A stretch of DNA of 64,000 nt from a virus. Lineage: Duplodnaviria > Heunggongvirae > Uroviricota > Caudoviricetes. Shown here piece after piece: positions 1 through 52,641 of this stretch (positions are counted from its first letter, which is position 1; every line of letters starts with the position of its first letter). Below the pieces are notes generated by a model, which was not told the DNA's origin, did not search any database, and saw only the letters and a list, made by a program, of their open reading frames with translations. Both the position numbers and the translations under genes were made by a program. The DNA is taken from the IMG/VR virus record IMGVR_UViG_2568526312_000010; one strand, 5' to 3'.

Positions 1-1285
1 TCAGCAAATCGTTAACGGCATCAGATGCCGGGTTACCTGCAGCCAGCGGTGCCGGTGCCCCTGCATCAGACGATCCAGCGCAGTATCACTGCGCGCCTGT
101 GCACTCTGTGGTGCTGCGGCCAGAATGCGGCGGGCCGTTTCCACGGTCATACCGGGGGTTTCTGCCAGCACGCGGGCCTGTTCTTCGCGTCCGTGAGCCT
201 CCTCACAGTTGAGGATCCCCATAATGCGGCTGTTTTCTGCCGCAACCGCAGCGGTGATCTGCGCGTTCACGTCCGGCTGCGCCGCGCTGGCGTTTTCGCC
301 CTCCGTCGCTGGCACCACGCCAGTAACGTCAGCCTGCGAAGCAGTGGCTGAAACAGTTGTTGATTGAGTCTCTTTGGTCATTCGCCCTCCTGAGAGACGG
401 GATTTACGTGCATCCAGTGCATCACGCATAACGGTGATCGCATCGGTGCTGTTGACAAGTTCATCAGCCAGTCCGGCATCAATGGCCTCCTGACCGCTGT
501 ACACTGCAGCCTCGGTATCCAGCACAGCCTGCACGGACAGGCCGGTATATGCCGACACCTTCTGCGCAAACATCCGGCGGGTTGCATCCATCCGGGACTG
601 CAGTGTTTCCCGGACATCACCCGGTAGATGGCTGTAGGGGTTGCCATCCACCTTATGGCTGCCGCTGTAAATCAGCGTGATTTCCACGCCCTGTTTCTCC
701 AGGGCAGCACCGTAATTACTGTGAGCCATCATGACGCCGATGGAGCCTGTCCGGGCGGTCTGCGTGACCAGACGCCGGGAGGCGGCGCTGGCAAGCAGCT
801 GACCTGCACTGCAGTTCATGTCGTTGGCCAGCGCCCATACCGGTTTTATGTCTCGCACACGGGCGATGATGTCAGCACAGTCAAATGCTCCCGCCACCAT
901 CCCGCCCGGTGTGTCCATATCGAGCAGAATGCCGTCCACCATCGGATCGCTGGCAGCCTGTTGCAGACGGGCGATAATGCCGTTGTAACCGGTCATTCCC
1001 GAATACGGCTGCAGCGCCCGCGTCCGGCTGACCAGCGTACCGGACACCGGCAGCACGGCGATGCCGTTCATGACCTGATAACTCCGGGCCTGTCGTGGTC
1101 CGTCATCATCACCGGATAACGCCAGCGCCGCGGGTGCCTCTCCGGCAGTCAGGCTGTCGCCGGATACTGCATCCGTCAGGCGGCTGATCCCAAGCTGGCC
1201 TGCAAGCGCACAAAAGAAAACCCGCGCATAGGCGGGTTCAAGCATCAGCGGCTCATTAAAAGCCATGCTGGCAATATGCGGGAGA

Positions 1286-1305
<20 letters not shown>
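1..1305 (-). CDS. C: head protease/scaffold protein gpC-like (S49 peptidase family), 3' end beyond window
   Basis: ORF 1..1440 contains TAELRNLPHIASMAFNEPLMLEP, recalled as lambda gpC N-terminus; probable GTG start at 1305 preceded by GGAGGAG; follows portal in lambda order. Confidence 0.75.
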
Positions 1306-4986
<3,681 letters not shown>

Positions 4987-5012
<26 letters not shown>

Positions 5013-5532
5013 TCAGCAACCCCGGTATCAGTTCATCCAGCGCGGCTGCTTTGTTCATGGCTTTGATGATATCCCGTTTCAGGAAATCAACATGTCGGTT
5101 TTCCAGTTCCGGAAAACGCCGCTGTACTGAGAGAGGGATCCCGTCAAGAATACTGGCAATTTCACCTGCGATCCGTGACAGCACGAAAGTACAGAATGCG
5201 GTTTCCACCACTTCTGCGGAGTCTCTGGCATTCTTCAGCTCCTGGGCGTCAGCCTGCGCACGCGTAAGTCGATGGCGTTCGTACTCAATAGTCCCAGGCT
5301 GGAGATCTGCCTCGCTGGCAGCCCTGTAATCCTCAACCTCTTTACGGAGTTTTTCATTTTCGATATCAGCTTCCCTCTGCGCATACCACTGAATTGCCGT
5401 GGCGGTATCAAATACAGATTCAACGCCCTTACCACCTCCGGAGACGCAAGGGAGCCCCTGAGACTGCCAGCGTTCAATCGTTCGCGGATCCACGTTGAAA
5501 ATTTCGGCAAGTTTCTTTTTATTAACCTTCAT
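4987..5532 (-). CDS. Nu1: terminase small subunit (Nu1-like), N-terminal DNA-binding domain divergent from lambda
   Basis: 181 aa; C-terminal two thirds (EIENEKLR...LSEYIEQS) match recalled lambda Nu1, first ~60 aa differ. Confidence 0.8.
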
Positions 5533-5556
5533 GAAACAGTCTCACAACAAATACAG

Positions 5557-5670
5557 GGTCCGACATGAAAGTGCCCGAAAATGACTTTTTCAGGCGTTTT
5601 CATGTCGGACCTTTACGGATTCGATATTAGAAAAAACAAATAGTTATGTTCGAGAAGTACCGACATGATT
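5557..5670 (-). promoter_or_regulatory. candidate cosB: three CCGACATGA elements, two forming a 14-bp perfect inverted repeat
   Basis: GGTCCGACATGAAA at 5557-5570 and its reverse complement at 5598-5611, third copy at 5660-5668; lies between Nu1 start and cosN. Confidence 0.5.
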
Positions 5671-5707
5671 TTCCCCGGAAAATTTTCATAAATAGCGAAA
5701 ACCCGCG

Positions 5708-5719
5708 AGGTCGCCGCCC
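5708..5719 (-). other. cos: cosN cohesive-end sequence (lambda-type)
   Basis: minus strand reads GGGCGGCGACCTCGCGGGTTTTCGCTATTTATGAAAATTTTCC, recalled lambda left-end sequence, upstream of Nu1. Confidence 0.75.
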
Positions 5720-5918
5720 CGTAACCGGTCGGATCGCCGGAAAGGACCCGCAAAATGATAATAATTATCATCTACATGTCACAACGTGCATCTACGCCAT
5801 CAAACCACGTCAAATAATCAATTATGACGCAGGTATCGTATTAATTGATCTGCATCAAATTAACGTAAAAGCAACTTCAGATAATACAAATCAGCAACAC
5901 TGAATATGGGGCAACATT

Positions 5919-6143
5919 ATGTCATCAAAGAACAGAACCCGCAGAACAACAACCCGCAACATCCGATTTCCAAACCAGATGATTGAACAAATTAACATCG
6001 CTCTTGATCTGAAAGGTTCAGGAAATTTTTCAGCGTGGGTTATTGAAGCCTGCAGAAGAAGATTAATTAATGAAAAATATTCTCAATTTGTACCCAACAA
6101 AGACAAACACGACCAGAGAACCTGTTCAGACAGGTTTACTTAA
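5919..6143 (+). CDS. ribbon-helix-helix-like small DNA-binding protein
   Basis: 74 aa; RNIRFPNQMIEQINIAL...NFSAWVIEACRRRL resembles RHH (Arc/MetJ/CopG) fold; opposite strand to the late genes; diverged homologue at 55560. Confidence 0.45.
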   Translation: MSSKNRTRRTTTRNIRFPNQMIEQINIALDLKGSGNFSAWVIEACRRRLINEKYSQFVPNKDKHDQRTCSDRFT

Positions 6144-6224
6144 ACGACTTATATATGACACAAAAAGCGACCACTAAAGTCGCTTTTTCTTATGGTAACA
6201 GGCAATAACGCTCTCAGATATTTT

Positions 6225-6539
6225 TTAGCATTTTTTTGACCGCGCGTTTCCGGACGTATTCTGTTCTCCTGTCCCTTTATATCGTCGGAATACCCGCCGC
6301 TCTTCAAATCCCATTCCCAACTCAGAATGTAGTCTGTTGACCGCTTGTTTTATTTCGGTCAGGTTCACCGGTGAAACCGGAGTCCGGCGCGCCTTACGCA
6401 AACACTCTGCTCGTTTCTGTGCCGCCACTTTTCTTTTCTGGTCATCACTTAGCTGTACCATCACTTTTGCCCATCGTTCAGCTGCTCTCCGGTACAGTCC
6501 TTTTTTCTCCAGACATTCTGCCAGGTGATCATGTAGCAT
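6225..6539 (-). CDS. PerC-family (Pch-like) transcriptional regulator homologue
   Basis: 104 aa with LEKKGLYRRAAERW and FRRYK motifs recalled from PerC/Pch proteins; sits in the Rz-to-cos moron slot; AT-rich region follows. Confidence 0.5.
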   Translation of the reverse strand: MLHDHLAECLEKKGLYRRAAERWAKVMVQLSDDQKRKVAAQKRAECLRKARRTPVSPVNLTEIKQAVNRLHSELGMGFEERRVFRRYKGTGEQNTSGNARSKKC

Positions 6540-7002
6540 AAGTAACCTCCGTTTATCTACAGACTGCCATCCTGAATTTACCGTCCTTAATAAGACAACA
6601 ATAAAAAACTAATTATATAAAAACAATAAAAATAATATACAAAAAAACTAAACAACAAAGAAAAGCAAATCATATCTGGCATTTTAATTGAAAGAGCAAT
6701 TACCGAACAAAAGACGCTGACTATATACTCAAAACCAAACAACAATTCTGCCAATCAGGTATCATGGCAACACACGGAATTACCATGTTTTTGCCTTCTC
6801 TGCCCATACAATACGGGCATATACTTCATACTCTATTGTAATATTTCTATCCATGTGCCCCACTCCATTTACCTGTAAATAATATTCAAAATATTTATCA
6901 CAGAAATCGTTTTTGGCCATGAACTGAGCACACTATAAAGTCCGGAACTGACTCTTTGTTAAATTACCTTAACGTTACCAGTAACACCTTCGTAACAAAA
7001 CA

Positions 7003-7476
7003 TCACGGTATACACTGGGTACGGATATATTCCTGTGCTCCTTCCAGTTGCTTCTGCATTGCCATCAGCCGTTCTCTGAGGATGAAATAATCCCGTTCAG
7101 CGGCTTCTGCCAGTCGGGGACCGGTTGCATTATCCACGCCGGAGGTGATGGGGGCTTTACGCAAGGAGCCTGGACAGTTGGCGTTGATGCGCAGGCGCTT
7201 ACGACCAGCGGCAACATCAGCACGCAGAGTTTCATTTTCAGCTCTCGCATCAGCTAATTCCCTCGAGTATCTGGCATCAAGTGCAGCAACATCACGCTGG
7301 CGCTGCTGCATATCAGTAATGGTTGCATTTGCCAGCTCCAGCTCACTGACTTTTTTATCGCGCTGCTCTTTGTAGGTTATGGCGTTATCGCGGTAATGAT
7401 TCAGCCCCAGACTAAGCGCACCACAGACCACCAGCAGAATAACGGTAAACGCGGAAAGCATTCGGTTTATGCTCAC
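7003..7476 (-). CDS. Rz: Rz i-spanin
   Basis: 157 aa with N-terminal TM segment and coiled-coil body, last gene of lysis cassette; contains Rz1 in +1 frame. Confidence 0.8.
   Translation of the reverse strand: MSINRMLSAFTVILLVVCGALSLGLNHYRDNAITYKEQRDKKVSELELANATITDMQQRQRDVAALDARYSRELADARAENETLRADVAAGRKRLRINANCPGSLRKAPITSGVDNATGPRLAEAAERDYFILRERLMAMQKQLEGAQEYIRTQCIP
7065..7250 (-). CDS. Rz1: Rz1 o-spanin lipoprotein (embedded in Rz)
   Basis: [15 protein letters not shown] lipobox then proline-rich PPSPPAW; nested inside Rz. Confidence 0.7.
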   Translation of the reverse strand: MRELKMKLCVLMLPLVVSACASTPTVQAPCVKPPSPPAWIMQPVPDWQKPLNGIISSSENG

Positions 7477-7618
7477 CCCACCAGCCCTGCCGAAGTCAAC
7501 GCCATCCAGGCCATGGAAAGAAAAAGAGCAACCAGCATTAGTGAAAATGAAATGCCGACAAGTACACAGAGGCTCTTCACCAGCGTTATGAGTTTATCTG
7601 ATATCATTAGCCACCCCA

Positions 7619-8188
7619 TCAATCCGCCTTTGTTATTTTCCCTTTGCCTGTATCAGCCAGGACAAAATCAATCAGCATATTCGCTTCATTTACCAGCGTA
7701 CGGATTTTTGATACATGCGCGGCTTTAACCTGTTTCCACTCATTCAGCCCGGTAGCAAACACACTGGCAATGTTTTTATCCCGTTTCATGTCAGCACAAG
7801 CCTGGTTGAGTTCTTCCATCACGCTCATTTTACGGGGATTAACGACAAAACCCTTCGTCCAGTACTCGTAAAGAACATCGTCGCACTCTTCCTGATACCG
7901 GATGACCTTATCGCGGATTTCGGGTTTTACTTTGTTGGGATTAATGGTTTGTAGCCAGCCGGCAAGTTTTCGAAGTGGCATGGACACCATATTGCGTTGT
8001 TTCCCATCCTCAGCAACCATAACGATTTCCGTTATAGTTGACGCAAAACGCTGTCTTAACTTAGCCAACTGTGATTGCCAGGCCAGCCCCATCCCCGCAA
8101 CGACAGGTTTCATGGGAACGTATGGTTCGCCATTATGGTTAACTACATAAAGAGAGTTGCCGTGAAACGGCACGGCCATCATATTCAT
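7619..8188 (-). CDS. antirepressor-like protein (Bro-N / KilA-C-like)
   Basis: 189 aa between endolysin and Rz; N-terminal AVPFHGNSLYVVNHNGEPYVPMKPV resembles Bro-N; has its own 270-bp upstream region. Confidence 0.5.
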   Translation of the reverse strand: MNMMAVPFHGNSLYVVNHNGEPYVPMKPVVAGMGLAWQSQLAKLRQRFASTITEIVMVAEDGKQRNMVSMPLRKLAGWLQTINPNKVKPEIRDKVIRYQEECDDVLYEYWTKGFVVNPRKMSVMEELNQACADMKRDKNIASVFATGLNEWKQVKAAHVSKIRTLVNEANMLIDFVLADTGKGKITKAD

Positions 8189-8297
8189 CGGTTATTTCCT
8201 TTTAGTGATGAACCTTGTCTCACAGGAATCCAGCCCACAGAAAGGCACCGACAGCCAAACCGGTATCCTCAAGGGTCATCCTGAAAGGTTCTGTGTT

Positions 8298-8319
8298 GTG
8301 AGATGCGCGTGAGATGCGC
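8298..8319 (-). repeat. tandem 11-bp direct repeat GTGAGATGCGC x2 upstream of antirepressor gene
   Basis: exact tandem duplication about 110 bp upstream of the ant-like start; possible operator. Confidence 0.5.
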
Positions 8320-8458
8320 AGAAATGACAAAGGCATCATTACGGTGCCTGAGTGTTAAACAACTGTTTTGACTTTATTCACTTACATTTTGCCAATTTGC
8401 AGGATTTCGTGTTATCCGTCCATGTAAGCAAACCTCATTTTTCAGCAAAATATTCTGC

Positions 8459-8992
8459 TTATCTGTCGATTCCCCAGCACGCCAGCGCGCTCTCCTGGTC
8501 ACGACGGGATACCTGACCGTAACAGTTATTTGAGCGAATACGGCAGTCCCTGCCACCGTCCTTAATCCACCAGCGAATCGCTTCGCAGGCACCTTTTCGA
8601 TCTCCTGCATTAATCCGTCTGTAAAACGTCGACGGGAAACACTTACCGGGGCCAATGTTGTACGGACAGAATGACGCGATCCCCGCTTTCTGGGGTTCGG
8701 TCAGCGGCACTCTGATGTTTTTCTCCACCCATGCCAGCGCCTTATCACGCTCAATGGCGTTAACCCGGTCGCATTTTTCCTTCGACAGCTTCATGCCAGG
8801 AATAACAGGCTTACCATCCCCCCGGGTGGCTCCACGGCAGATGGTCCAGATACCCGCACCATCACGGTATGCTGTGGTGTGGTTACCTTCCTTTTCATCC
8901 AGAAACTGGTCGAGGATTTCAGGCGCAGACGCCCCTGCACCAATCAGCGCCAGAACGGCAGCCGACAGGCCGTATCTGATTTTTGCGTTCAT
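8459..8992 (-). CDS. R: SAR endolysin (phage lysozyme, T4-lysozyme-like fold)
   Basis: 177 aa; weakly hydrophobic N-terminal segment YGLSAAVLALIGAGA then E..D..T catalytic spacing (EGNHTTAYRDGAGIWTICRG). Confidence 0.85.
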   Translation of the reverse strand: MNAKIRYGLSAAVLALIGAGASAPEILDQFLDEKEGNHTTAYRDGAGIWTICRGATRGDGKPVIPGMKLSKEKCDRVNAIERDKALAWVEKNIRVPLTEPQKAGIASFCPYNIGPGKCFPSTFYRRINAGDRKGACEAIRWWIKDGGRDCRIRSNNCYGQVSRRDQESALACWGIDR

Positions 8993-9042
8993 GGATATTT
9001 ATCAGGGTTTATCGATTTCAAATCCCTGGATATGTTAAGTCT

Positions 9043-9390
9043 TCAGGCCAGCGGTGGAGTCTTCAGAGAACCCGTAATTATTCCCGGTAGTTTTCCTCTG
9101 TAGGTTATCAACACATCCTGCGCCTCTAAAATTACGGGACGCTTTTCCGGTAACGGACCATCCCCTTCACATAACCCGGCAGCAACATCCATGAAAAACT
9201 GCTTCGCCTGCTTTTTCGCCTCAGCTTCGTAAAACTCCAGCGTGGCACCTTCAGTACGGTCAAGACTAATCGCCACATCTGGCAACAACAGTGACGGATA
9301 CCCACCAATTTCCGGTGCCACAGTAACAGTAATCTTATCCGGGTAATTATTTATCCCTTTAACAACCAGTTCGTATTTTTTCTTCATCAC
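9043..9390 (-). CDS. hypothetical protein within lysis cassette
   Basis: 115-aa ORF between holin and endolysin, identical in both prophages. Confidence 0.45.
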   Translation of the reverse strand: MMKKKYELVVKGINNYPDKITVTVAPEIGGYPSLLLPDVAISLDRTEGATLEFYEAEAKKQAKQFFMDVAAGLCEGDGPLPEKRPVILEAQDVLITYRGKLPGIITGSLKTPPLA

Positions 9391-9391
9391 T

Positions 9392-9598
9392 TTACTCTCC
9401 CCGCGCCGCCTTACGCCGGTCTTCTTTAATCTTGAAATACAGGTTCGTCAGATATGTCAGCAGCCCAAACAGCAGACTCCCCAGCACGCCTATCGCCACC
9501 CACTGGGACGGAGAGACTTTGTCCAGCAGCTGCAGTAACCAGTATCCCGTCCCCACCGCTGACGTGGTGTATGACACACCCGTTGTGATTTTTTCCAT
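9392..9598 (-). CDS. S: class II holin / pinholin (phage 21 S-like)
   Basis: 68 aa, two TM segments and RKAARGE tail, close to recalled S21 sequence. Confidence 0.85.
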
Positions 9599-9854
9599 CT
9601 GATGTATGTCTCCGTCACCGCCGACAGAAAATGAAAGTAAAGAAAAACAAAAAAGCCGCCAGTGTCACCCACTGACGGCCAACGCCGGGAGCCGTGATTA
9701 TGGCATTCAGGCTCTGCTAAAAATGCCAGATAACATTCCGGCCACCCCCTGATTCAGGTTATAAATGACACAATATCTTGACAACATCCGTCACTGTCTG
9801 TCAGAAAATGTACTGCCATATAGAAGCAACATGTGAAGTACATCTATCCTTTTG

Positions 9855-9897
9855 AGCCAGCACCTCTCCACCGAAAGTCAGTGCTGGCTGTTTTTTT
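9855..9897 (+). terminator. rho-independent terminator on plus strand (antisense to late operon)
   Basis: AGCCAGCAC...GTGCTGGCT stem followed by T7 on the plus strand only. Confidence 0.5.
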
Positions 9898-10005
9898 CCT
9901 TAATAAAGCATCTGTAACTGAAACAATCCGCATATTGATAATATATTGACAGGCATCATTGCTGTCTGTGAAAAATAAGTCTCTACAAACATATAAGGCC
10001 TTTTA

Positions 10006-10045
10006 GCCAGCGTCTTCTTTCAGGTCAGTCGCTGGCTCTTTTTTT
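10006..10045 (+). terminator. second plus-strand rho-independent terminator abutting the nanS-p stop
   Basis: AGCCAGCG...CGCTGGCT stem followed by T7 on the plus strand. Confidence 0.5.
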
Positions 10046-10046
10046 A

Positions 10047-11897
10047 TTATGCTGCCGGTGCATTTATCTCCAGCACCAGACTTTCTATCTCAACGCCATA
10101 CGCTGCATTTTTTGTAACATCCGTCAGCGTCAGCGCATTCAGTCCCAGTGTCAGACTGTCTTTTATAACCTGGAATGCCGGGCCAGCCACTCCATTCAGT
10201 TTCGGAGTAACCGTGGCACTGCCGGCGGTGAACACCAGCTCCAGCGTCTGCCAGTCGTTACCGTAATCGCCGAACTCCCCCAGCTTCGTGTTTCCGGCTT
10301 TCCTGTGATGCATCAGATTCACTCTGCCGTCAGTGGTCTGAGTAAAGTACGACATCAGGAACGGATTACCGGTACCCGTCATCGCCACACCATCAGGAAC
10401 GGGAGCATCCGTATACAGATAAATCCCCAGCCCGAACTGATTGTTGGTCAGCGCGCCTGACAGGCGGAACTTACAGGTCAGTCTGCCGCCCTGTGTCAGC
10501 AGGGTAATTGCGTCATCCACCGGATGCGTCAGGGACCAGGTTTTATTGCTCTGCCTGGTGATCTTAAATACACCATCTGACAACTGAATTCCGCCATCCT
10601 TAATGCTCCAGCCCTGCGCAGCAGCCTCTCCGGCTGCCGGCAGCAGGGAGATTGTGCGAACGGACGTATCTGCAGACGGACCCGATGGCGTGTTGCCGCC
10701 GGGCGAGGGTTTGATTTCCGGTGCCTTACCACTGATGAAGGCTGAGGTGCGCCCGGCTGCGTTCAGAATAGCGGTTGCCAGACGCTCCGGAATAATGCTC
10801 CTGCGCGCCCATGAACTGAAATGTGTCGGGCGGTTTGATGATACCTGGTTTCCATTCGTTCTCGATGCCGCACCGTAATATCCTGATGCCGGAATATCCG
10901 GATCTTCTGCCGGCGCGTTAGTGGCGGTATTGACGCCGTTACCGTCTGTCATGAAGGGCACAAAATAAACGCCCTCACTCTCCCTGTTTTTATACCCGCC
11001 GTACACGGTGTCGTACTGGGTAGCGTATGTATTTTTCCAGTAATACGTCGTGTCACCACAAATCCACGGCACATCTGCAGCACTGCCACCATGGCACTGC
11101 GCGTTAAACACGGAGAGGTCAGCACGAAACTGTGCCAGCATGGCTGTAAACAGCGCAGGTTGCTGTGCGTGGGTGGCGGCGCTCATGTCAAACTCTCCCT
11201 GCATCCAGCAGACGGCCAGCAGAACGTTTTTGGGATTTTTCTGCAATGCCGCTTTTGTGCGGGAAATCAGATCCTGATATAACGGCTTGCCCACCCCCCA
11301 GCGTGCCGAATCCTGGCTGGCCCCCGTGGACTCGCTGAATGTCCCCTCCGCGCCCTGGGTAAATGCCGAACCACCACGACAGCATGGTACCAGCAGGATC
11401 CCCGCGTTATTCGGGATATACGGGAGCAGTTTTTTGGCAATATGTAACCCCTGGCCGACACAGCCGTACTGCCCTTTGCTCAGGTCTGCCTTCGGATGAT
11501 TCAGCGTACTCATATCCTGCACATCATGCAGGCAGTGGTCGGCCGGAATAATATCGTTATATCTGCAGGCAGCCCCACCCGGCGTCACTGTACTGCGGCG
11601 CGCCAGCTGTTTAATGCGCGGATCCGGAGCATCGTATGAATCCGGCAGCGGAAGCCCTTCACCGTAAGCCATGGCATTGGACTGCCCGGCCAGTACGATG
11701 ACGTAGTACCAATCCGGCTCAGTTGCACCACTGACCACCACATCACCTTCTGCTGTAATCGCCTGCATCAGGGTATAAGGGGTTATGGCCACCGGACTAC
11801 CAAACGGCTGCCAGCCCTCTTTCAGTTTGTGTGTCAGCTTTTCCGCAAGGTCTGACGGCGACGCCGCCCTGACAACATCATAATGTTTAATCGACAT
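10047..11897 (-). CDS. nanS: prophage sialate O-acetylesterase NanS-p (DUF1737 N-terminal domain plus SGNH-type esterase)
   Basis: 616 aa; GQSNAMAYG esterase motif; position upstream of the holin as in Stx-type phages. Confidence 0.8.
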   Translation of the reverse strand: MSIKHYDVVRAASPSDLAEKLTHKLKEGWQPFGSPVAITPYTLMQAITAEGDVVVSGATEPDWYYVIVLAGQSNAMAYGEGLPLPDSYDAPDPRIKQLARRSTVTPGGAACRYNDIIPADHCLHDVQDMSTLNHPKADLSKGQYGCVGQGLHIAKKLLPYIPNNAGILLVPCCRGGSAFTQGAEGTFSESTGASQDSARWGVGKPLYQDLISRTKAALQKNPKNVLLAVCWMQGEFDMSAATHAQQPALFTAMLAQFRADLSVFNAQCHGGSAADVPWICGDTTYYWKNTYATQYDTVYGGYKNRESEGVYFVPFMTDGNGVNTATNAPAEDPDIPASGYYGAASRTNGNQVSSNRPTHFSSWARRSIIPERLATAILNAAGRTSAFISGKAPEIKPSPGGNTPSGPSADTSVRTISLLPAAGEAAAQGWSIKDGGIQLSDGVFKITRQSNKTWSLTHPVDDAITLLTQGGRLTCKFRLSGALTNNQFGLGIYLYTDAPVPDGVAMTGTGNPFLMSYFTQTTDGRVNLMHHRKAGNTKLGEFGDYGNDWQTLELVFTAGSATVTPKLNGVAGPAFQVIKDSLTLGLNALTLTDVTKNAAYGVEIESLVLEINAPAA

Positions 11898-12374
11898 CGA
11901 ATTTCTCCCGTGTACAGGAACAGAGTTAAAAAGCCGGAACCGGAATCAAATCACAGGATGACCATCTGCCAGTGGCTGGTCGTAAAAAAAAGCCGCGCCA
12001 TGCGCAGCCGGAAATAAAGGGATAACGATGATAGTTTGAGAAAAACAGAAACAACACTTTTGTGGCAAAGCATGGTGCCGGGTGCCTCCCGGTGAATTCA
12101 GTATCAGCACCTGAATCCGCGATTATCCCATATACCTGGTTGCTGATCGCCCCTCCGCACAGGGGGATTCACCATGCAGAAGTGTTTTTAATAAACAGCA
12201 AACAAAAAAATCAAGCATTATGCAGGCTGTTTCTTTTTATCACCGGCCACAGCAATACCACAATGCCGCAGACCAGCACCCCATCCGCCAGCACCGACAT
12301 GATTCTGCTGGTGAAATCCACCATCACCACCAGAAACAGCAGGAGTGCAGCCACAGCCAGGCGCAGTTTTACCG

Positions 12375-12806
12375 TCACAGGTGATTCTCCAGACGAAGAC
12401 CCAGAACACCGGCAATCTCTTCCAGCACCTTGCGCTCTTCCGGCTCAATTTCGCCGTCTGCCTCCGCAATGGCCACCGCCACATCCAGCACATCTTCCGC
12501 TTCACGCGTATCGTGTTTCACATCCTCAATCTCACGTAACGCCGCACGACGACCAGTTTTAAAGTTCGTATCCAGCTGACCGATAATGGTTGCGCTAATC
12601 GCATTAATTTCTGACGTAAACGCGGACAGCGCAGGCTGATTACGCAGTACCTGTTCGATCTTCGCTTTCTCGGATGCCTCACATTCACCATCTGCACAGG
12701 CCACCAGGTATGCGGCGTTAATCACCACCTGTGCCAGATCGCGTTTTTCAAACTTTTTAATTTCCGTTGCCGCTCTGCGGGTTTTCTTTTTGAAGATTCC
12801 AAACAT
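12375..12806 (-). CDS. TerB-like (tellurite-resistance-like) protein
   Basis: ACADGECEASEKAKIEQVL...AIAEADGEIEPEERKVLEEIAGVLG pattern; start taken at ATG 12806 with AAGGA RBS. Confidence 0.65.
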   Translation of the reverse strand: MFGIFKKKTRRAATEIKKFEKRDLAQVVINAAYLVACADGECEASEKAKIEQVLRNQPALSAFTSEINAISATIIGQLDTNFKTGRRAALREIEDVKHDTREAEDVLDVAVAIAEADGEIEPEERKVLEEIAGVLGLRLENHL

Positions 12807-12936
12807 CGTGACGTTCCTTTGGGTGGGTGAGCCAACGCCCGGGAGCGATCTGCCCACAGAGAAAGTCACACTGACCACTCCGTAAGCTCACCCCCGAAAG
12901 GCTCTGTGGTTGGTATGCGCCGGGCGTGGCGCAGAT

Positions 12937-12962
12937 ACAAAAAAGGCCCGCCGAAGCGAGCC
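12937..12962 (-). terminator. rho-independent terminator downstream of tRNA cluster
   Basis: minus strand GGCTCGC-TTCG-GCGGGCC hairpin followed by T6. Confidence 0.55.
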
Positions 12963-12975
12963 TGGAAAATAAGTG

Positions 12976-13052
12976 TGGCGCGTTGTAGTGGAGTCGAACC
13001 ACTGACCGATTGCTTAGAAGGCAATTGCTCTGTCCGGCTGAGCTAACAACGC
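12976..13052 (-). tRNA. tRNA-Arg (anticodon TCT)
   Basis: hand-folded cloverleaf with perfect 7-bp acceptor stem, CTTCTAA anticodon loop, TTCGACT T-loop, CCA end. Confidence 0.8.
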
Positions 13053-13065
13053 AGAATACCGATAA

Positions 13066-13145
13066 TGGACCGCCATCGGGGACCCGGCCCCGCACCAACA
13101 ACCCTGTTATGGTGTCGTCTGCTCTTCCTGATAAGCTAATGGCGG
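13066..13145 (-). pseudogene. degenerate tRNA-like remnant (position of tRNA-Arg(TCG) in prophage 2)
   Basis: acceptor-stem halves conserved but interior replaced; no canonical T-loop or anticodon stem. Confidence 0.4.
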
Positions 13146-13152
13146 TTTGTGA

Positions 13153-13228
13153 TGGTGGCCCTTGCTGGATTTGAACCAGCGACCTGGCGATTATGAGTCG
13201 CTCGCTCTCACCACTGAGCTAAAGGGCC
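13153..13228 (-). tRNA. tRNA-Ile2-like (anticodon CAT)
   Basis: GGCCCTTTAGCTCAGTGGTGAGAGCG...CTCATAATCGC...GGTTCAAATCC...GGGCCACCA, resembles recalled ileX-type tRNA. Confidence 0.8.
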
Positions 13229-13256
13229 GAGCCAAAAAATAATAATCAGATGAAAA

Positions 13257-13970
13257 TCAATAATCAAGCCCTTGCCTGGATACATATCTGTCTGGCGGGA
13301 AGCCATAATAGCGGTGAAATACAGAAATAAAGTAGGACCGGCTTGAATAACCACATTTTTCTGCTACAGCCTGTCCATATCCATACCGGGAACATAACAT
13401 ATTTACAGCAACACGCATCCGCTCTTCCAGCAACAAGCGACTGAACATGCCCCCTTCATTTTTCAGTTTTGTCTTTAACAAACTCTCACTCATATGCAAC
13501 TGTAGAGCAATCGCACCAAGCGTCCAGCTTGCTGATATATCTGTCTGAATTATCGCCCTGACTTTGGCACTTATGCTGGATAAACATCCACTTAAAAACA
13601 ATGACATCCGTTCATCTGTTTCAAACAGAGACAGGCAGGCCATCATAAGAAACATATCCGTGACCTCTCCGGAAAATCCCTGGCTGGTAATTAAAGCCGC
13701 AGCCAACGCAGGATTGTTGGGTTCCAGCAACAGGTAAAGCGGAATGTCAGTCAGACGAGTCCTCGTCAGCTTATGCTGACTTTCCAGATATTGACTTACG
13801 ACGGATTCGCTTATATCGACAATTTTAACTTTGCCATAATGCATAAGGAAAAGCTCCCTGATGCATTTGGTGGCCAGAACGACTGAGCCTGGCTTAAGTG
13901 ACAACGTATCCTTTTCAAGAAAAATATTAATTGGGGAGCAAACCATGATAACTGAACAGACAACAGCCAT
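13257..13970 (-). CDS. AraC-family transcriptional regulator (AppY/PerA-like architecture)
   Basis: 237 aa; C-terminal AraC-type HTH (AVAEKCGYSSRSYFISVFHRYYGFPP); AT-rich gene; present only in prophage 1. Confidence 0.75.
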   Translation of the reverse strand: MAVVCSVIMVCSPINIFLEKDTLSLKPGSVVLATKCIRELFLMHYGKVKIVDISESVVSQYLESQHKLTRTRLTDIPLYLLLEPNNPALAAALITSQGFSGEVTDMFLMMACLSLFETDERMSLFLSGCLSSISAKVRAIIQTDISASWTLGAIALQLHMSESLLKTKLKNEGGMFSRLLLEERMRVAVNMLCSRYGYGQAVAEKCGYSSRSYFISVFHRYYGFPPDRYVSRQGLDY

Positions 13971-14105
13971 TATAATTTTACTTTCATTAGCAATTGGTTA
14001 GCTCAATTATAGCCCCAAAAGGTAAATTATCATCAACACATAAGCAAAGGACTGACAGGTGCCGCCCCCCCCACCAGCCGCCCATTTACCACAAATAAAA
14101 AGCCT

Positions 14106-14426
14106 TCAGGACTGAATGCGTCTGTAACAACCGCACTGATAGTCTGCCAGACCCGCCATAACCAGCTGGGTCAGTATTAACTGGCAGCGTTCGCGTGAAA
14201 GGTAAGTATTCTGCGCAATCTCCCCGACTGTCGCCGGTTCGGTAACGCTTAATTCATTAAACACCACTCTGGCGGTTTCTGTCATATCCTGCTGTTTTAG
14301 CATGTCTTTTTCCCTTTTCCGGTTAACGTGACATACCAATAACTCTTGTCGAAAAAGCCAGCAAGTTGAAAGACCGGTATTAGCAACCACCAGCGCGTTT
14401 AACGCCCCGTGCCGTTTTTCAGTCAT
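14106..14426 (-). CDS. hypothetical small protein (true start may be internal, about 14288)
   Basis: ORF directly after the tR'-like terminator; first ATG lacks an RBS, internal ATG has AGGA. Confidence 0.3.
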   Translation of the reverse strand: MTEKRHGALNALVVANTGLSTCWLFRQELLVCHVNRKREKDMLKQQDMTETARVVFNELSVTEPATVGEIAQNTYLSRERCQLILTQLVMAGLADYQCGCYRRIQS

Positions 14427-14452
14427 AAAAAAACCCGCAAAAAGCGGGCTCT
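14427..14452 (-). terminator. tR'-like intrinsic terminator downstream of Q
   Basis: minus strand CCCGC-TTTTT-GCGGG hairpin followed by T7, about 75 bp downstream of the Q stop. Confidence 0.6.
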
Positions 14453-14527
14453 TTCAAATGTCCATGTCTGCTATTCGCCTCGCGGTACAGCTTTGCGAAG
14501 CTTACCGGAATTGAAGCAGTTTTTACG

Positions 14528-15094
14528 TCAAAAAGCAATAACTTTTTTCTCTATACCAAAAGCCATAACCATTGGTTTGTACAAAATAAATTCTGCCACC
14601 TTTAGCCAATGCTCAATGCGTCTTTCACAGGTTCTTAAACTCCATTCCGGATGTGCATCATTCAGCAATTCAGCCATTTTGCGCTTAGTCATCCCCCGCC
14701 CCACATAACGCTGACTCAGAACATTGAGCAGCCCGGGATAACCTGCCAGTACTTCACCAATAACCCTATCGATTATTAACGCCTCTGAATCGGTACAATG
14801 TGCCAGCCAGCTTTTTTGATTGCCGTTGATCATATCCCGCAAAAAAGCCTCAAGTTCAGGTTTGTCCAGACCCGCTTTTTTCATCCTCCGGAGCGCCTCG
14901 TTAATTGCCGTTTTTGTCAGCTTTTTAGAGGTCAGTAATTGGTTGAACATATTTCCCGTCTTACCGTCGCCAATATACGACCAACGCCCCCACATACGCA
15001 GTTTCCCCTGGATCCAGACACTTTCCAGCGTTTTCAGGCGTAAATGCTCACCGCTTTTGCCTGTAATTTCCGGGTATATCATATTTATGCTCAC
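14528..15094 (-). CDS. late antiterminator Q-like protein (allele 1)
   Basis: 188 aa in the canonical slot between rusA and terminator/tRNAs; family assignment from position and vague similarity. Confidence 0.5.
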   Translation of the reverse strand: MSINMIYPEITGKSGEHLRLKTLESVWIQGKLRMWGRWSYIGDGKTGNMFNQLLTSKKLTKTAINEALRRMKKAGLDKPELEAFLRDMINGNQKSWLAHCTDSEALIIDRVIGEVLAGYPGLLNVLSQRYVGRGMTKRKMAELLNDAHPEWSLRTCERRIEHWLKVAEFILYKPMVMAFGIEKKVIAF

Positions 15095-15144
15095 TCACTT
15101 TCAATTTTGTAAATCTTCACGCCCAGCCGCCCACCAGAAACGAG

Positions 15145-15450
15145 CTAGCCGCGCACAATATTGATTTCATCAAACTGCTCGTCGTCTATGAGAAGTCCGG
15201 CATGCGTCAGCGCATCCAGTGGTGCTTTCAGGATATTGTCCAGGTCACGACGGCGCTTATCCGGTGGCTCTGCAATAATCTTTATCGCCAGCCTTCCGGA
15301 CAGGTTTAATTTCAGCCGCTGCTGGCGAACAATAAGTGCCACATCCCGGCGATAACGCTCACCGGCTTTTGATACAAAATATGTGCTGCCACGACGTCGC
15401 CAGTAGGTGTTCACCGTCGGCGGGTAAGGCAAAACAAACTCTATACGCAT
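15145..15450 (-). CDS. rusA: Holliday-junction resolvase RusA, truncated by a nonsense codon relative to prophage 2 copy
   Basis: PPDKRRRDLDNILKAPLDALTHAGLLIDDEQ matches RusA; ends INIVRG-stop where copy 2 continues QLVPGERLGIKITELECA. Confidence 0.8.
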   Translation of the reverse strand: MRIEFVLPYPPTVNTYWRRRGSTYFVSKAGERYRRDVALIVRQQRLKLNLSGRLAIKIIAEPPDKRRRDLDNILKAPLDALTHAGLLIDDEQFDEINIVRG

Positions 15451-15462
15451 CAGTAACCTCTT

Positions 15463-16566
15463 TTACCCGAGCACGCCGGTTGCAAAGGCGTGATCAAGAA
15501 AACGAAAAATTAAATCAACCTGGGAACCATGCTTTTCTTCGAACGCCAGCGGATCCGCATGAAGCTCGTTGTGATGCTCCCGACACAGCGGTAGCGTGAA
15601 AATATCGTGGGATTTTGTTCCCATTCCGCCCTGACCATGACCAATCAGATGATGAGGATCGTCCGCTGGCTTACCACAACACGCACACGGCTGTGTCTTT
15701 ACCCAGCGTGTGTATTTCTCATTTACCCAGCGGCGACGTTTAGGTCGTTTCATGAAGGATTCCGGAGACTCCGGATCAACGGCAATGCTGACCACCGTCT
15801 TTTCCTGTGGTGGGTTCTGTTGCTGGTGGGTGTGAGGCGGTAGCGCAATATTTTTTGTGCGCTGCTTCAGTATGCTGGTGGCGGTCTGTTCTCCCGGTAT
15901 GATGTCGCTTTCACGGTATACGGAGCGGATTTTTTCCGCCGGTAATCCCAGAGAGCGACGCGATACTGCCTCAGGTAATGCGTCCACCACCTGATTGCAG
16001 ACTGCCCACCAGGATAATTCAGCCAGCGATAATTCCCGCTCCTGCGTGCCATTCATTACATGGCGTATGACGTCAATCATCCAGGCTGTCAGATTTTGTT
16101 GAGTAAGTTGCTCAAGTGATTCGGAGGTCTGGTCGCGCAGCTGGTTGTCGCAGTGCCAGCACAACACCATTGCGCCAGCACCGTAACTGTGAATAACGGT
16201 TTCGCTGTGATGATAATCGCCGTGTGGCCACTGGCAGGATTTCACGTGACGTAATAACCAGTCAGACAGTGCACCAGCGCCGCCAGCTGCACGAATCACC
16301 CGCTCATCGCTGAAAAATGGCAGCAGTGATTTATCTTCCGCCAGCGGCTGGCGAACAGCAGGAACCGCTCCAGATGGCAGCGCCCGCATGTTTTTCGGTT
16401 CCGGCTCCACCAGCACCCTGCCGCGATGAAAAACTGGCAATGATTCACGACCGGGCTTAAGGACCACCAGCCCGAGTTCCGGAACCAGAACAGGTCGAAG
16501 TAATACCCGCACATTACCTCCAGACGCGCTGACGGTAGCAGGCATGTGTCCGTGGCAGATGTGCAC
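15463..16566 (-). CDS. DUF968 (YdfU-like) protein with HNH-like Cys/His motif
   Basis: C-terminal CACCGKPADDPHHL...LCREHHNELH; adjacent to rusA/Q as ydfU is in Qin. Confidence 0.65.
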   Translation of the reverse strand: MHICHGHMPATVSASGGNVRVLLRPVLVPELGLVVLKPGRESLPVFHRGRVLVEPEPKNMRALPSGAVPAVRQPLAEDKSLLPFFSDERVIRAAGGAGALSDWLLRHVKSCQWPHGDYHHSETVIHSYGAGAMVLCWHCDNQLRDQTSESLEQLTQQNLTAWMIDVIRHVMNGTQERELSLAELSWWAVCNQVVDALPEAVSRRSLGLPAEKIRSVYRESDIIPGEQTATSILKQRTKNIALPPHTHQQQNPPQEKTVVSIAVDPESPESFMKRPKRRRWVNEKYTRWVKTQPCACCGKPADDPHHLIGHGQGGMGTKSHDIFTLPLCREHHNELHADPLAFEEKHGSQVDLIFRFLDHAFATGVLG

Positions 16567-23707: not shown

Positions 23708-24357
23708 TGAGGTTGACGATGGAATTTAAAGATTTACCTCCTTCAATCCAGGAGATTGCAGCACACACACTTCGTCATCGTCTGAACGAACTTGAATTGG
23801 AATCGGTAACGAAAAAAGACACTGATAATATGGCTCGTAATGTGCGCGATGCGTTTACCGGATTGTATTTCTGTGCGTCTATAAATAAACACGACTCAGA
23901 GAGTGTGGCAAATAAAATTGCAGAAACGACAGCGCAAAACATCAATACGAAACCAACGGAAGAAGAAATTGATCAGTTTGCTCATGATGCTGGTTTAAAA
24001 AACAAGAAAGAAAAATCGCCATATGCGGGGAACATGTTTGTTTATGACAATCTCATCAGAATTCGTGGCGAAATTCCGGCGGAATACCTGGCAAGAGTCC
24101 ATCAGGCATTGCTTAAAAATTTGGAAACAGAATTATTTGATGGCAACACTAACGGTTTCTTCATGGTATCAGGCCTTGAGAAAGACTGGGATGCAGAAAA
24201 ACGCTGGAATGTTGCTACATGGTTATTCAGTAACAGAGCCGCTGCACTGGAAGCTTCGGCATGTATTTGCGGCCTGTTCTTAACAGACCACAAATATAAT
24301 CTGGATGTGTACAGTTATATTTACGCTGAACACGGTCCACTCTGGATTGACTGGTAA
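23707..24357 (+). CDS. hypothetical 216-aa protein, no recognisable family
   Basis: ORF directly downstream of cI on the same strand; AT-richer than neighbours; alternative start at 23719. Confidence 0.5.
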   Translation: MRLTMEFKDLPPSIQEIAAHTLRHRLNELELESVTKKDTDNMARNVRDAFTGLYFCASINKHDSESVANKIAETTAQNINTKPTEEEIDQFAHDAGLKNKKEKSPYAGNMFVYDNLIRIRGEIPAEYLARVHQALLKNLETELFDGNTNGFFMVSGLEKDWDAEKRWNVATWLFSNRAAALEASACICGLFLTDHKYNLDVYSYIYAEHGPLWIDW

Positions 24358-24567
24358 TTATAAGGAAACACCAGCAGGGCCGCGGCGACCAACAGAACGA
24401 TTAAAATCAATAATGCCATTATAAAGGACATTATTTAATTTATCGTCGAATGCTGATTCTGTGAGCCTCAACTCTGAATGAGTTTTTAATAACCCTGATT
24501 GCCTGAGTTGATTTACCAGGCATTCAATCTGTTTTTCAATAAGCGGATTTCTTTTTTTGTTTGGCAT
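24358..24567 (-). CDS. hypothetical 69-aa protein, convergent with the 216-aa gene
   Basis: GGAGG 5 nt upstream of ATG (MPNKKRNPLIEKQIECLV...); stop codons of the two genes abut at 24357/24358. Confidence 0.4.
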   Translation of the reverse strand: MPNKKRNPLIEKQIECLVNQLRQSGLLKTHSELRLTESAFDDKLNNVLYNGIIDFNRSVGRRGPAGVSL

Positions 24568-24904
24568 TTTATCCTCCATTGAGGTTCTGGGTTAAAAATG
24601 GAGACCAACACGCTGTCACGTGTGGTCGTGCGCCGGACACGGATAAGAATCCGGTACTGACAGTTTACTGAAAGGATATTTCCCTGAAAAGTCAGTGCAT
24701 AACGCGAAAGCGTACGGCGAAGCTCTTTCCCTTAGAAGGCTTGTCGTTAGATTTCTTCGAACGTGCGCTTCCGGTTGTGGCACTCCGCGAAATGGCGCGG
24801 CGGTAAGTATGGCGGGGTTATTCCTTCCCCATTGAGGACACCGGGTTGTCAGGTTGACCATACGCTTAAGTGACAACCCCGCTGCAACGCCCTCTGTTAT
24901 CAAT

Positions 24905-24962
24905 TTTCTGGTGACGTTTGGCGGTATCAGTTTTACTCCGTGGCTGCTCTGCCGCCCTTTTT
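24905..24962 (+). ncRNA. dicF: DicF small RNA
   Basis: tttctggtgacgtttggcggtatcagttttactccgtggctgctctgccgcccttttt matches recalled DicF with one mismatch; terminator hairpin plus U-tract; upstream of dicB. Confidence 0.8.
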
Positions 24963-25131
24963 AAAGTGAATTTTGTGATGCGGTGAATGCGGCTAAGCGC
25001 ACGCGGAACAGTTAAAACCAAAAACAGTGTTATGGGTGGATTCTCTGTATCCGGCGTTAATTGTTAACTGGTTAACGTCACCTGGAGGCACCAGGCACTG
25101 CATCACAAAATTCATTGTTGAGGACGCGATA

Positions 25132-25320
25132 ATGGAAACGTTATTACCAAACGTTAATACGTCTGAAGGTTGTTTTGATATTGGTGTTCTGCTCAGTAAC
25201 CGGGAGTTTACTGAAGATGCCATTAACATGAGGAAATATGAGCCTTATCTGCTCAATGATAATTCCATACTTTCCCGAATTGCTCTTCTTGAACTTGGTA
25301 TTTTCGGAGAACGTCAATGA
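25132..25320 (+). CDS. dicB: cell-division inhibitor DicB-like
   Basis: METLLPNVNTSEGCFDIGV...TEDAIN matches recalled DicB N-terminus; GAGGA RBS; follows dicF. Confidence 0.7.
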   Translation: METLLPNVNTSEGCFDIGVLLSNREFTEDAINMRKYEPYLLNDNSILSRIALLELGIFGERQ

Positions 25321-25505
25321 CTTCAGCATTTGCACTGATGATGACGGTTTTTCTTATAACGGGTGAATCACAGAATGTGATTACCGGAATTTATGCCAGT
25401 AAAGAATCCTGCCTCCAGGCAAGAGACGAGCAAAAAATTTCTGGTGAATGCCTCCCGGTAAAAAAAGTATCGCTGTACCTGAATAACGAAACACCGGCTG
25501 GATAA
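25317..25505 (+). CDS. YdfD-like small protein with hydrophobic N-terminus
   Basis: 62 aa, MTSAFALMMTVFLITG signal-like segment, two Cys; start overlaps dicB stop (ATGA). Confidence 0.5.
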   Translation: MTSAFALMMTVFLITGESQNVITGIYASKESCLQARDEQKISGECLPVKKVSLYLNNETPAG

Positions 25506-25597
25506 CCCTCCAGCCATATTAACACCATACCAACGGATTAAAAATGCCAGCAATGGCAGGGATTTGTTCACCCTTAAATCTGTAATGAGGTTTATCA

Positions 25598-26842: not shown

Positions 26843-27375
26843 TAATCAGAAGAAATCTGGCAAAAGACCGTTTTACAGTACCAAAAACACAGGCGGGAAC
26901 CAATCGTGTGATTCACCTTATTAAGCCCGCAATCGACGCTCTCCGGAGTCAGATGGCACTAACGAGACTGAGCAAAGAGCATATCATCGATGTTCACCTC
27001 AGAGAATTCGGCAGAACAGAGAAACAAAAATGTACCTTTGTTTTTCAACCTGAAGTGTCAGCGAAAGTAAAAAATTATGGCGACCATTTTACCGTTGACT
27101 CAATAAGGCAGATGTGGGACGCAGCGGTAAAGCGTGCCGGAATCCGCCATCGCAAATCGTATCAGTCGAGACACACTTATGCCTGCTGGTCGTTAACAGC
27201 AGGAGCTAACCCGGCATTCATTGCAAACCAGATGGGCCATGCAGATGCGCAAATGGTGTTTCAGGTGTACGGGAAATGGATGTCAGAAAATAATAATGCG
27301 CAGGTAACGCTGTTAAATACACAGTTAAGCGAGTTTGCCCCAACCATGCCCCATAACGAAGCGATGAAAAGTTAA
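26824..27375 (+). pseudogene. tyrosine integrase, C-terminal catalytic fragment only
   Basis: 183 aa with H-x-x-R and Y (SRHTYACWSL...GHADAQMVFQVYGKWM) but no N-terminal domain or box-I Arg region. Confidence 0.7.
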
Positions 27376-27447
27376 TTTTTTATTTATCAATTAGTTAGAT
27401 TGAATGACTCTTGAAATCCATAATTCATAGATGTTTTTTACTATTCT

Positions 27448-27795
27448 GTGGGTTTTTGGGTGTTTTCTAAGTTTTTTCAGATGGTTGTATTTTTTCTAAA
27501 AATCCCTAATCTCGATTTTGCTGTTTATTTGAGGCCTTTTTATGTCCCATATATGCCCCACAGATACCCCGCAGCCAAAATCAACAAAATGCCAAAAGGT
27601 TCTGTTCCTGCCCTGCAACAAGAAATGCTGCGACGTGTCAGTAAACGTTATGACGATGTAGAAGTGATCATCAAATCCACCAGCAACGATGGCCTTTCAG
27701 TTACTCGCACCGCCGATAAAGATTCTGCAAAAACTTTTGTTCAGGAGACGCTGAAAGATACCTGGGAGTCTGCTGACGAGTGGTTTGTTCGCTAA
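27448..27795 (+). CDS. hypothetical small protein at the prophage junction
   Basis: likely internal start [14 protein letters not shown]...; not recognised. Confidence 0.3.
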
Positions 27796-27844
27796 TTAAC
27801 GAGTAAAATCGACCCTGTACACGATTCTGTGTAAATGCCTTTTC

Positions 27845-28665: not shown

Positions 28666-28757
28666 GTAAGCGTACAGCCTGAACCGTCTGGTCAGAATCT
28701 GACGAATTAGACAAAGTGGTGTCCACCAAATAAGTAGTGGGAACCAAAGTATCAGAT

Positions 28758-29482: not shown

Positions 29483-29531
29483 ATCTCTTTATCCTGGTTG
29501 TCACAGAATAAGCCCGGTAAAATACGGGCTT

Positions 29532-31070: not shown

Positions 31071-31108
31071 CACATCCCCGTCAATACGGCCCTCGCTGTA
31101 CGCTTACG

Positions 31109-52578: not shown

Positions 52579-52641
52579 ATCAGCCTCCTGAAAATAAAAA
52601 AACCGCCGCAGCGGTTCATGATGGTTACAGTGTGAACAGGG

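Follow-up and report, generated by a model that had tools for sequence, protein, structure and literature searches.

The DNA examined here is a stretch of 64,000 nucleotides from a tailed-virus record (IMG/VR IMGVR_UViG_2568526312_000010), and this whole stretch is called the window. It carries a long direct repeat whose two copies, A on the left and B on the right, each hold the late-gene and lysis cassette of a prophage. Judged by its match to annotated genomes, the window is the tandem Sp11-Sp12 region of Escherichia coli O157:H7, two defective lambdoid prophages lying head to tail in the same orientation. Hybrid prophages with crossovers inside the repeat were found in complete genomes. 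An earlier note on this DNA, made from the letters alone, had pointed to the repeat and is referred to where its claims were followed up.

Sequence comparisons

The window was compared with itself by BLAST and then aligned column by column. Genome searches were run against 5,426 complete E. coli genomes. The tRNA genes were located with ARAGORN and domains with Pfam, and other names were taken from the RefSeq annotation of near-identical DNA. The deletion-junction query joined window positions 5533-13229 to 62383-63308 (A left flank, repeat, B right flank), and the reciprocal-junction query joined 55460-62382 to 13230-14529 (B left flank, repeat, A right flank). Crossovers were placed by sites diagnostic for copy A versus copy B. 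Differences between the copies were compared across four strains (the window, Sakai, Z1835, and 7409), and strain C1-057 was compared too.

Repeat structure and boundaries

In the self-comparison, 7013-13229 matched 56160-62382 at 97.66% over 6,233 columns, with 120 mismatches and 19 gap openings. The repeat is nested. Its core is an exact match of 4,447 bp (7544-11990 versus 56696-61142, offset 49,152), flanked by differences at 7543 and 11991 in the column alignment; an exact repeat of 4.4 kb cannot arise by chance. To the right, the copies differ at 7 positions in 11991-12781 (offset 49,153) and in 48 columns in 12782-13229 (~90% identity, offset 49,154-49,156). To the left, 100 columns differ in 7013-7543, where identity between the copies is ~60-90%. 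The features of the two repeats are as follows.

7013-13229, minus strand: copy A, late-gene/lysis cassette of the left, Sp11-type prophage (self-BLAST, alignment)
56160-62382, minus strand: copy B, same cassette in the right, Sp12-type prophage (self-BLAST, alignment)
7544-11990: exact core of copy A (alignment)
56696-61142: exact core of copy B (alignment)
15122-15813, minus strand: second direct repeat, rusA and the start of DUF968 (self-BLAST)
63309-64000, minus strand: partner of the second repeat, rusA (63278-63637) and the C-terminal part of DUF968, reaching the window end (self-BLAST)

The outer left edge of the repeat lies 10 bp inside the Rz 3' end, and near-identity begins within a 147-bp open reading frame (ORF) adjoining Rz. 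The right edge is 1 bp beyond the tRNA-Ile2(CAU) gene (13153-13228). The earlier note had given the repeat as 7545-13230 and 56697-62383 at offsets of 49152-49153, with boundaries near Rz and just past tRNA-Ile, and self-BLAST and the alignment agree with these positions. The self-comparison that it proposed for defining breakpoints yielded the nested structure and the exact core. Its near-identical block therefore stands, and its extent is corrected in two respects: on the left, homology continues through Rz for another ~530 bp, and on the right, identity drops to ~90% over the final ~450 bp.

The second shared block, also announced in the earlier note, was recovered by self-BLAST at 99.1% (6 mismatches in 692 bp) and is cut by the window end. 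Strain 7409 matches window 62000-64000 at 100% and was used as a proxy for the missing part. Through this proxy the block spans 15082-16524 at ~93% overall, and 79 of its 85 mismatches are in the stretch that the window does not contain.

Gene content of the cassette

From the tRNA end, the cassette carries tRNA-Ile2, tRNA-Arg, a TerB-like gene, DUF3927, a NanS-p-type esterase, holin, YdfR, endolysin, an Ant-like gene, a 48-amino-acid (48-aa) ORF, and Rz/Rz1. Holin, endolysin, and Rz/Rz1 stand in the order of a late operon downstream of the Q antiterminator (Pfam; holin and Rz1 from annotation). An ileZ-argN-argO tRNA cluster and the esterase lie between Q and holin; copy B has all three tRNAs, and in copy A one of them is a remnant. 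The late genes of both prophages are all on the minus strand, as are the genes listed here.

A 7003-7461, B 56150-56617, minus strand: Rz spanin, with embedded Rz1 at 7065-7250 (PF03245; 120/152 residues match)
A 7473-7619, B 56625-56771, minus strand: 48-aa ORF, containing the boundary between diverged and identical sequence (annotation; 40/48 residues match)
A 7619-8188, B 56771-57340, minus strand: Ant-like protein with P22_AR_N domain (Pfam; copies identical)
A 8459-8992, B 57611-58144, minus strand: endolysin R (PF00959; copies identical)
A 9043-9387, B 58195-58539, minus strand: YdfR/DUF1327 (Pfam; copies identical)
A 9392-9598, B 58544-58750, minus strand: class II holin S (annotation; copies identical)
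A 10047-11897, B 59199-61049, minus strand: 616-aa NanS-p-type sialate O-acetylesterase with DUF1737, SASA, and DUF6645 (Pfam; copies identical)
A 12211-12378, B 61364-61531, minus strand: DUF3927 small protein (annotation; 1 residue differs)
A 12375-12806, B 61528-61956, minus strand: TerB-like protein (PF05099; ~137/143 residues match)
A 12976-13052, B 62132-62208, minus strand: tRNA-Arg(UCU) (ARAGORN)
A 13053-13152, B 62222-62298, minus strand: tRNA-Arg(UCG), a decayed remnant in A and an intact gene in B (ARAGORN, alignment)
A 13153-13228, B 62306-62381, minus strand: tRNA-Ile2, anticodon CAU (ARAGORN, which labels it Met; ileZ in the Sakai annotation)

Identical protein translations had been claimed for the two copies. 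This holds for five of the nine ORFs (Ant-like, endolysin, YdfR, holin, and the 616-aa esterase) and fails for the other four, DUF3927, TerB, the 48-aa ORF, and Rz. The counterpart of the esterase in phage annotation is 'yjhS 9-O-acetyl-N-acetylneuraminic acid deacetylase'. The TerB-like gene occupies the position of stx in Shiga toxin (Stx) phages. In the tRNA-Arg(UCG) remnant (13053-13152 versus 62209-62305) the ends are conserved and the middle has diverged, and ARAGORN made no call there in copy A. The same difference of two versus three tRNAs between the copies is found in the Sakai annotation.

Tandem prophage context

Window segments 1-27696, 27693-34285, and 40928-64000 match Sakai at 99.8%, 99.9%, and 98.1%, respectively, all in order. 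In the Sakai annotation the matching region consists of 'prophage Sp11, lambda-like phage' with 'prophage Sp12, lambda-like phage' directly after it. Strain C1-057 is collinear over all 64 kb at 99.69% and matches 24000-44000 at 100.0%; its copy A differs. The inter-prophage segment 24000-44000 was matched over at least 80% in one place in 205 genomes. Sakai has ydfJ on the left, and C1-057 runs on rightward to int'-rspA'-ynfA. The window ends inside both prophages, so the placement of its pair between ydfJ and rspA/ynfA is inferred for the source strain from these relatives. The arrangement as two tandem prophages, read in the earlier note from the letters, is supported by the collinearity with Sakai and C1-057 and by the integrase remnant, DinI, and insertion sequence (IS) elements between them. 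The parts that differ between the prophages are listed below.

5533-7012: left flank specific to copy A, ylcI-like gene 5919-6143 (plus strand) and pchB/PerC-family regulator 6225-6539 (minus strand) (Pfam PerC, annotation)
13257-15094, minus strand: right flank specific to copy A, AraC-type regulator 13257-13970 and DUF1133-type antiterminator 14528-15094 (Pfam)
26824-32303: prophage junction, Sp11 integrase remnant 26824-27375, DinI 27553-27795, IS256/ISEc8 27845-31503, and nleG7 31653-32303 (annotation, exact mapping, Sakai borders)
50641-56159: left flank specific to copy B, HK97-type capsid, large and small terminase, HNH 55153-55518, and ylcI-like gene 55560-55787 (annotation, mapping)
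62592-63287, minus strand: right flank specific to copy B, PF06323 Q antiterminator (Pfam)

In the left prophage, the lambda-type S49 protease, portal, and terminase genes occupy 1-5532. Beyond its antiterminator follow rusA, DUF968, lambda-type O/P replication genes, the immunity region, a RecE remnant, and the integrase remnant. The right prophage starts with nleG7 (31653-32303) and continues with tail fibre genes, a frameshifted J, an IS3-family insertion, HK97-type tail, head, and terminase genes, an HNH endonuclease, the repeat, Q, rusA, and DUF968. Both integrases are disrupted, and a lambda-type module in Sp11 faces an HK97-like head module in Sp12 (HK97-gp10, HNH, and terminase at the right). 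The contrast between lambda-type and HK97-type heads had been noted earlier and fits the RefSeq annotation of near-identical DNA and PMC2669165. Sp11 and Sp12 have been described as tandem, int-disrupted, and non-excising (Asadulghani 2009, PMC2669165).

The two antiterminators, PF06323 versus DUF1133/PF06530, are unrelated (BLASTP E=0.77), as the earlier note had said of the Q alleles. Since the right boundary of the repeat falls 1 bp past tRNA-Ile2 and the Q genes are unrelated, this boundary splits the prophages' own Q regions from shared downstream genes.

At the prophage junction, 27845-31503 is an IS256-family element split by a complete ISEc8 (IS66 family). An extra IS629 is present at the Sakai junction and explains part of the difference in copy spacing. 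In the tail region of the right prophage there is an IS3-family (IS629/IS1203-like) insertion at 39518-40731 (flanks 39466-40772). Minor tail protein L is truncated, the tail assembly genes of Sakai Sp12 are absent, and the J gene (35874-39352) carries a frameshift according to the annotation of C1-057, whose sequence is identical there. Because of this tail damage, the right prophage is morphogenetically defective in this strain.

Deletion between the copies

Deletion of the ~49-kb interval had been predicted in the earlier note, and the predicted junction does exist: there are complete genomes in which one hybrid prophage is left and the crossover lies within the repeat. The deletion-junction query was covered 100% as one collinear piece in 22 of the genomes searched; an ordinary Sp11 reaches 89-90%. 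The simple-junction group comprises 18 of the 22, the ERL06-2442 group (4 genomes) being left out. RIMD 0509939 and PNUSAE145745, both checked end to end, carry one hybrid prophage from truncated ydfJ' to rspA'-ynfA. Along this hybrid, the Sp11 effector end comes first, then tail and head genes of lambda type, pchB, and an A-type Rz; next stand the shared core, TerB of B-type, the three tRNAs, and the PF06323 Q, and last the early region of Sp12. In NE 1092-2 the hybrid structure agrees on the right side, which was the side inspected.

At the diagnostic sites, RIMD 0509939 and NE 1092-2 have the A state left of 7544 (488/488) and the B state from 11991 on (55/55). PNUSAE145745 is A-type at 11991 and B-type from 12052. 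As these are two distinct crossover intervals inside the repeat, at least two independent deletions have taken place.

The copies are direct repeats at a distance of one prophage length, and this is what makes deletion possible. When they recombine by homology, 49,152 bp are removed, comprising the Sp11 early region and the Sp12 tail and head region, and a single hybrid prophage is left that combines the structural genes of Sp11 with the regulatory genes of Sp12. For recombination, the minimal efficient processing segment is tens of bp, and the exact repeat of 4,447 bp is far above it. The recombination is presumably RecA-dependent, which we infer from the length of identity and general E. coli genetics; the same standing applies to any rate of deletion. 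Spontaneous deletions in Sp11-Sp12 of Sakai were reportedly described by Chen et al. in 2013 (Appl Environ Microbiol 79:1934).

The ERL06-2442 group was considered as further deletions and rejected: Rz and the 48-aa ORF are B-type there, and the lambda-type module ends at nleA/nleH1-2. In ERL06-2442 (NZ_CP032801.1) both junction types occur ~580 kb apart on opposite strands (2.61-2.66 Mb; 3.207 Mb). The lambda-type structural module ending at nleA/nleH1-2 is Sp9-like, which implies a larger multi-prophage rearrangement.

Probable gene conversion in the core

The number of sites in 7544-11890 at which copies A and B differ is 0 for the window, 51 for Sakai, 26 for Z1835, and 20 for 7409. These sites are clustered, with 13 single-nucleotide polymorphisms (SNPs) at 9787-9852, 8 at 10017-10452, and 19 at 11211-11341, and the patches switch copy by strain: that at 9787-9852 is in copy B of Sakai and Z1835 and in copy A of C1-057. 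Sites 8366 and 10785 are equal in both copies within a strain and differ between strains. The repeat edges are near-invariant among strains, with 0-4 differences within the same copy (Z1835 copy B, an unrelated allele beyond 11890, being excluded). Clustered patches that switch copy, concerted sites, and invariant edges together make up a signature of repeated patchy gene conversion.

Copy B of the window differs from copy B of 7409 at 1 core site, and copy A of the window differs from copy A of 7409 at 21 sites, including the 20 that separate 7409's own copies. Since copy A differs where the 7409 copies differ, one B-to-A tract covering at least 8366-11341 would yield the perfect core. The perfect core is most simply a derived, recent state: starting from an ancestor like 7409, a single B-to-A conversion tract of at least ~3 kb would account for it.

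Other rearrangements at the cassette

The reciprocal-junction query was covered 100% in at least 10 genomes. A duplication or triple array as the source of this junction was ruled out in ATCC 43889 (NZ_CP015853.1), where it results from module replacement. The first prophage of ATCC 43889 keeps the Sp11 effector end and early region and has, in place of its lambda-type structural module, the HK97-like tail, head, and terminase module of the Sp12 type, located between J and the shared core. One crossover is in the J/tail-fibre homology, giving a chimeric J gene, and the other is in the shared cassette. The cassette is used as a crossover site for module replacement among O157 prophages too. In ATCC 43889 the replacement creates a much longer direct repeat between the two prophages.

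With a core that is 98-99% identical in Stx1a-converting phages, the cassette is a standard exchangeable module of the lambdoid phages of enterohaemorrhagic E. coli. The right copy of Z1835 stops matching at 11890/11891, the start-codon end of the esterase, and continues into an unrelated tRNA and DNA-methyltransferase region. The Stx1a phage matches stop at 11890 too, and there is thus a second, strain-variable mosaic boundary inside the repeat.

Strain 7409 (NZ_CP038423.1) has a ~390 kb inversion with an endpoint in the HK97-type terminase region of the right prophage (window ~52,000-54,900). The right prophage tail and head genes are joined there to the late/early region of the ompW-side prophage, and window 54000-64000 (100.0%) lies on the other strand beside ynfA, at 2.57 Mb. 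The halves of the window thus lie 350 kb apart on opposite strands in 7409; this was considered as a contradiction of the tandem and is explained by the large inversion.

Other repeats in the window

A tandem repeat of 162 bp (3.7 copies, 97% matches) is located at 48310-48902 and encodes an in-frame 54-aa repeat in a large gene of the right prophage annotated as portal; it is present in Sakai Sp12 too. The ylcI/ynfO-like genes of the two prophages match at 92% over 129 bp (5919-6047 versus 55560-55688). Near nleG-family (DUF1076) genes downstream of the right tail fibres, 32763-32928 and 33631-33805 form an 87% repeat of ~170 bp.

Comparison with known systems

The Sp11-Sp12 pair of Sakai (Hayashi 2001; PMC2669165) has the same locus, gene order, and repeat, with both integrases disrupted. 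The repeat of Sakai Sp11 matches that of Sp12 at 96.8% over 6,239 bp, and window matches to Sakai are 99.8% for Sp11 and 98.1% for Sp12. Besides its perfect core, with 0 differences against the 51 of Sakai, the window differs in copy spacing (49,152 bp versus ~50,957, through IS differences), in lacking the junction IS629, and in having the IS3-family insertion and lost tail genes in the right prophage.

PMC7430833 attributes spontaneous Sp11-Sp12 deletions in Sakai to Chen et al. 2013, which it cites, and describes Sp11-Sp12 deletions alongside a direct-repeat-flanked deletion between adjacent prophages. The latter, between Phi804-9 and Phi804-10 of FRIK O157:H7 strains (PMC7430833), likewise ends in direct repeats of adjacent lambdoid prophages; it belongs to a different lineage after inversion. 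Two isolates of one patient differed by a 50-kb indel in an Sp11/Sp12-like compound prophage; the indel is attributed to homologous recombination and caused false SNP calls (Yara 2020, PMC7645076). This compound stx2a prophage involves the same prophage pair, an event of ~50 kb, and homologous recombination between shared prophage sequence; unlike in the window, the Sp11 part there holds an additional, inserted stx2a phage.

The late region of Stx phages (Q, tRNAs, stx, nanS-p, S, R, Rz; YYZ-2008 and Stx1a phages) is 98-99% identical to the core at 7544-11890. It shares with the window the esterase domain make-up (NanS-p diversity, PMC10462455) and the holin-endolysin-Rz order. Unlike the Stx phages, the window cassette has no stx, carries TerB-like and DUF3927 genes between the tRNAs and the esterase, and belongs to defective prophages. 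The prophage-bounded rearrangements of Fitzgerald et al. 2021 (PMC8743559) are likewise due to homologous recombination at shared modules, and the 7409 inversion fits among them. Most of those events invert DNA between oppositely oriented copies in separate prophages, whereas the window copies are direct and adjacent, leading to deletion or conversion.

Alternative explanations

A tandem Sp11-Sp12 pair with an exchangeable late cassette, homologous deletion, and a core made by conversion very probably explains the locus as a whole. Several points weigh against it. Three of the 18 simple-junction genomes were viewed in context, two of these end to end, and the 4 genomes of the ERL06-2442 group have a different rearrangement. 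The best genome match to copy A with its flanks is 99.9%, and consensus building or polishing could be partly responsible for the perfect core. Each O157 genome has the cassette in 10-17 places, and some patches may stem from third-party prophages. An assembly artefact, either a spurious duplication or real copies homogenised by consensus or short-read polishing, is unlikely. Copy A with its flanks is found at 100% in none of the genomes searched, whereas copy B with its flanks reaches 100.0% in 7409, which makes copy A the unusual one; copy A departs from 7409 copy A just where 7409 A departs from B, as it would after cross-copy polishing; and false short-read mapping is documented at the Sp11/Sp12 locus (Yara 2020, PMC7645076), which makes the assembly risk raised in the earlier note a reasonable one. 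Yet the flanks differ on both sides, the outer 530 bp and 450 bp show copy-specific divergence (148 differing columns) that is the same across strains, and the tandem structure is present in Sakai, Z1835, C1-057, and ~200 other complete assemblies. The spurious-duplication version is already refuted. Patch shuffling is seen in several independent assemblies, so conversion is real at the locus. The figure 49,152 equals 3 x 2^14, and a data-chunking artefact was considered on that account; it is ruled out by the spacings in other strains (Z1835 47,848, without the ~1.3-kb IS3-family insertion; C1-057 49,144; Sakai ~50,957), which depend on IS content, and the equality is a coincidence. It is quite improbable that the identity arose because the two copies were each recently acquired or converted from some other prophage or phage with the cassette, for example an Stx1 phage, rather than by exchange between the tandem copies. 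The many places of the cassette in O157 genomes, its 98-99% identity in Stx1a-converting phages, and the end of Z1835 copy B at 11890, precisely where phage matches end, would suit such a source. The best phage match, however, is 98.9%, below 100%; the same SNP patches are in copy A of one O157:H7 strain and copy B of another, with two sites concerted within strains; and the state of the window is explained by a single tract whose donor is its own copy B.

The history could also have run in the opposite direction, a single hybrid being ancestral and the tandem made by Campbell-type insertion of a circular ~49-kb phage genome into the cassette. Homologous insertion is the exact reverse of deletion and leaves the same direct repeats, and the spacing of 49,152 bp is the size of a lambdoid genome. 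This course of events is hardly credible, however: the hybrids have two crossover points, are scattered among lineages, and number 18 against ~200 or more genomes with the tandem; an integrase remnant, DinI, and an nleG end belong to each prophage separately, as two Int-mediated integrations would give; and deletions have been observed arising in the laboratory and within a patient. It is very unlikely, too, that the repeat acts as the sole excision route of the integrase-defective pair, releasing a 49,152-bp circle that a helper packages and that moves nleG7 and its neighbours. Such a circle would carry the Sp11 replication/immunity region, a Q gene, the shared lysis cassette, and the Sp12 terminase and head genes; helper structural proteins would come from other O157 prophages, and ongoing gene conversion keeping the cores identical would maintain the route. 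Against this, the circle in this strain would carry the defective tail genes of the right prophage, and no circularisation, replication, or packaging was found for Sp11 or Sp12 (Asadulghani 2009, PMC2669165).

Significance

The tandem pair and its deletion by homologous recombination are already known from publications (Chen 2013; Yara 2020), and the results fit the established picture of mosaic O157:H7 lambdoid prophages that share modules and recombine at them. The additions made here are modest: at least two natural deletions with mapped crossovers, cassette-based module replacement, and an identity between the copies that varies among strains through patchy conversion. Deletion alters pulsed-field gel electrophoresis and long-read profiles. 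The interval holds nleG7, a type III effector gene, and the AraC-type regulator, both of which are lost on deletion, and pchB is retained. The locus misleads short-read mapping and SNP-based outbreak typing, and assemblers can collapse or homogenise its sequence. In practical terms, it is one of the causes of genome instability in this major food-borne pathogen.

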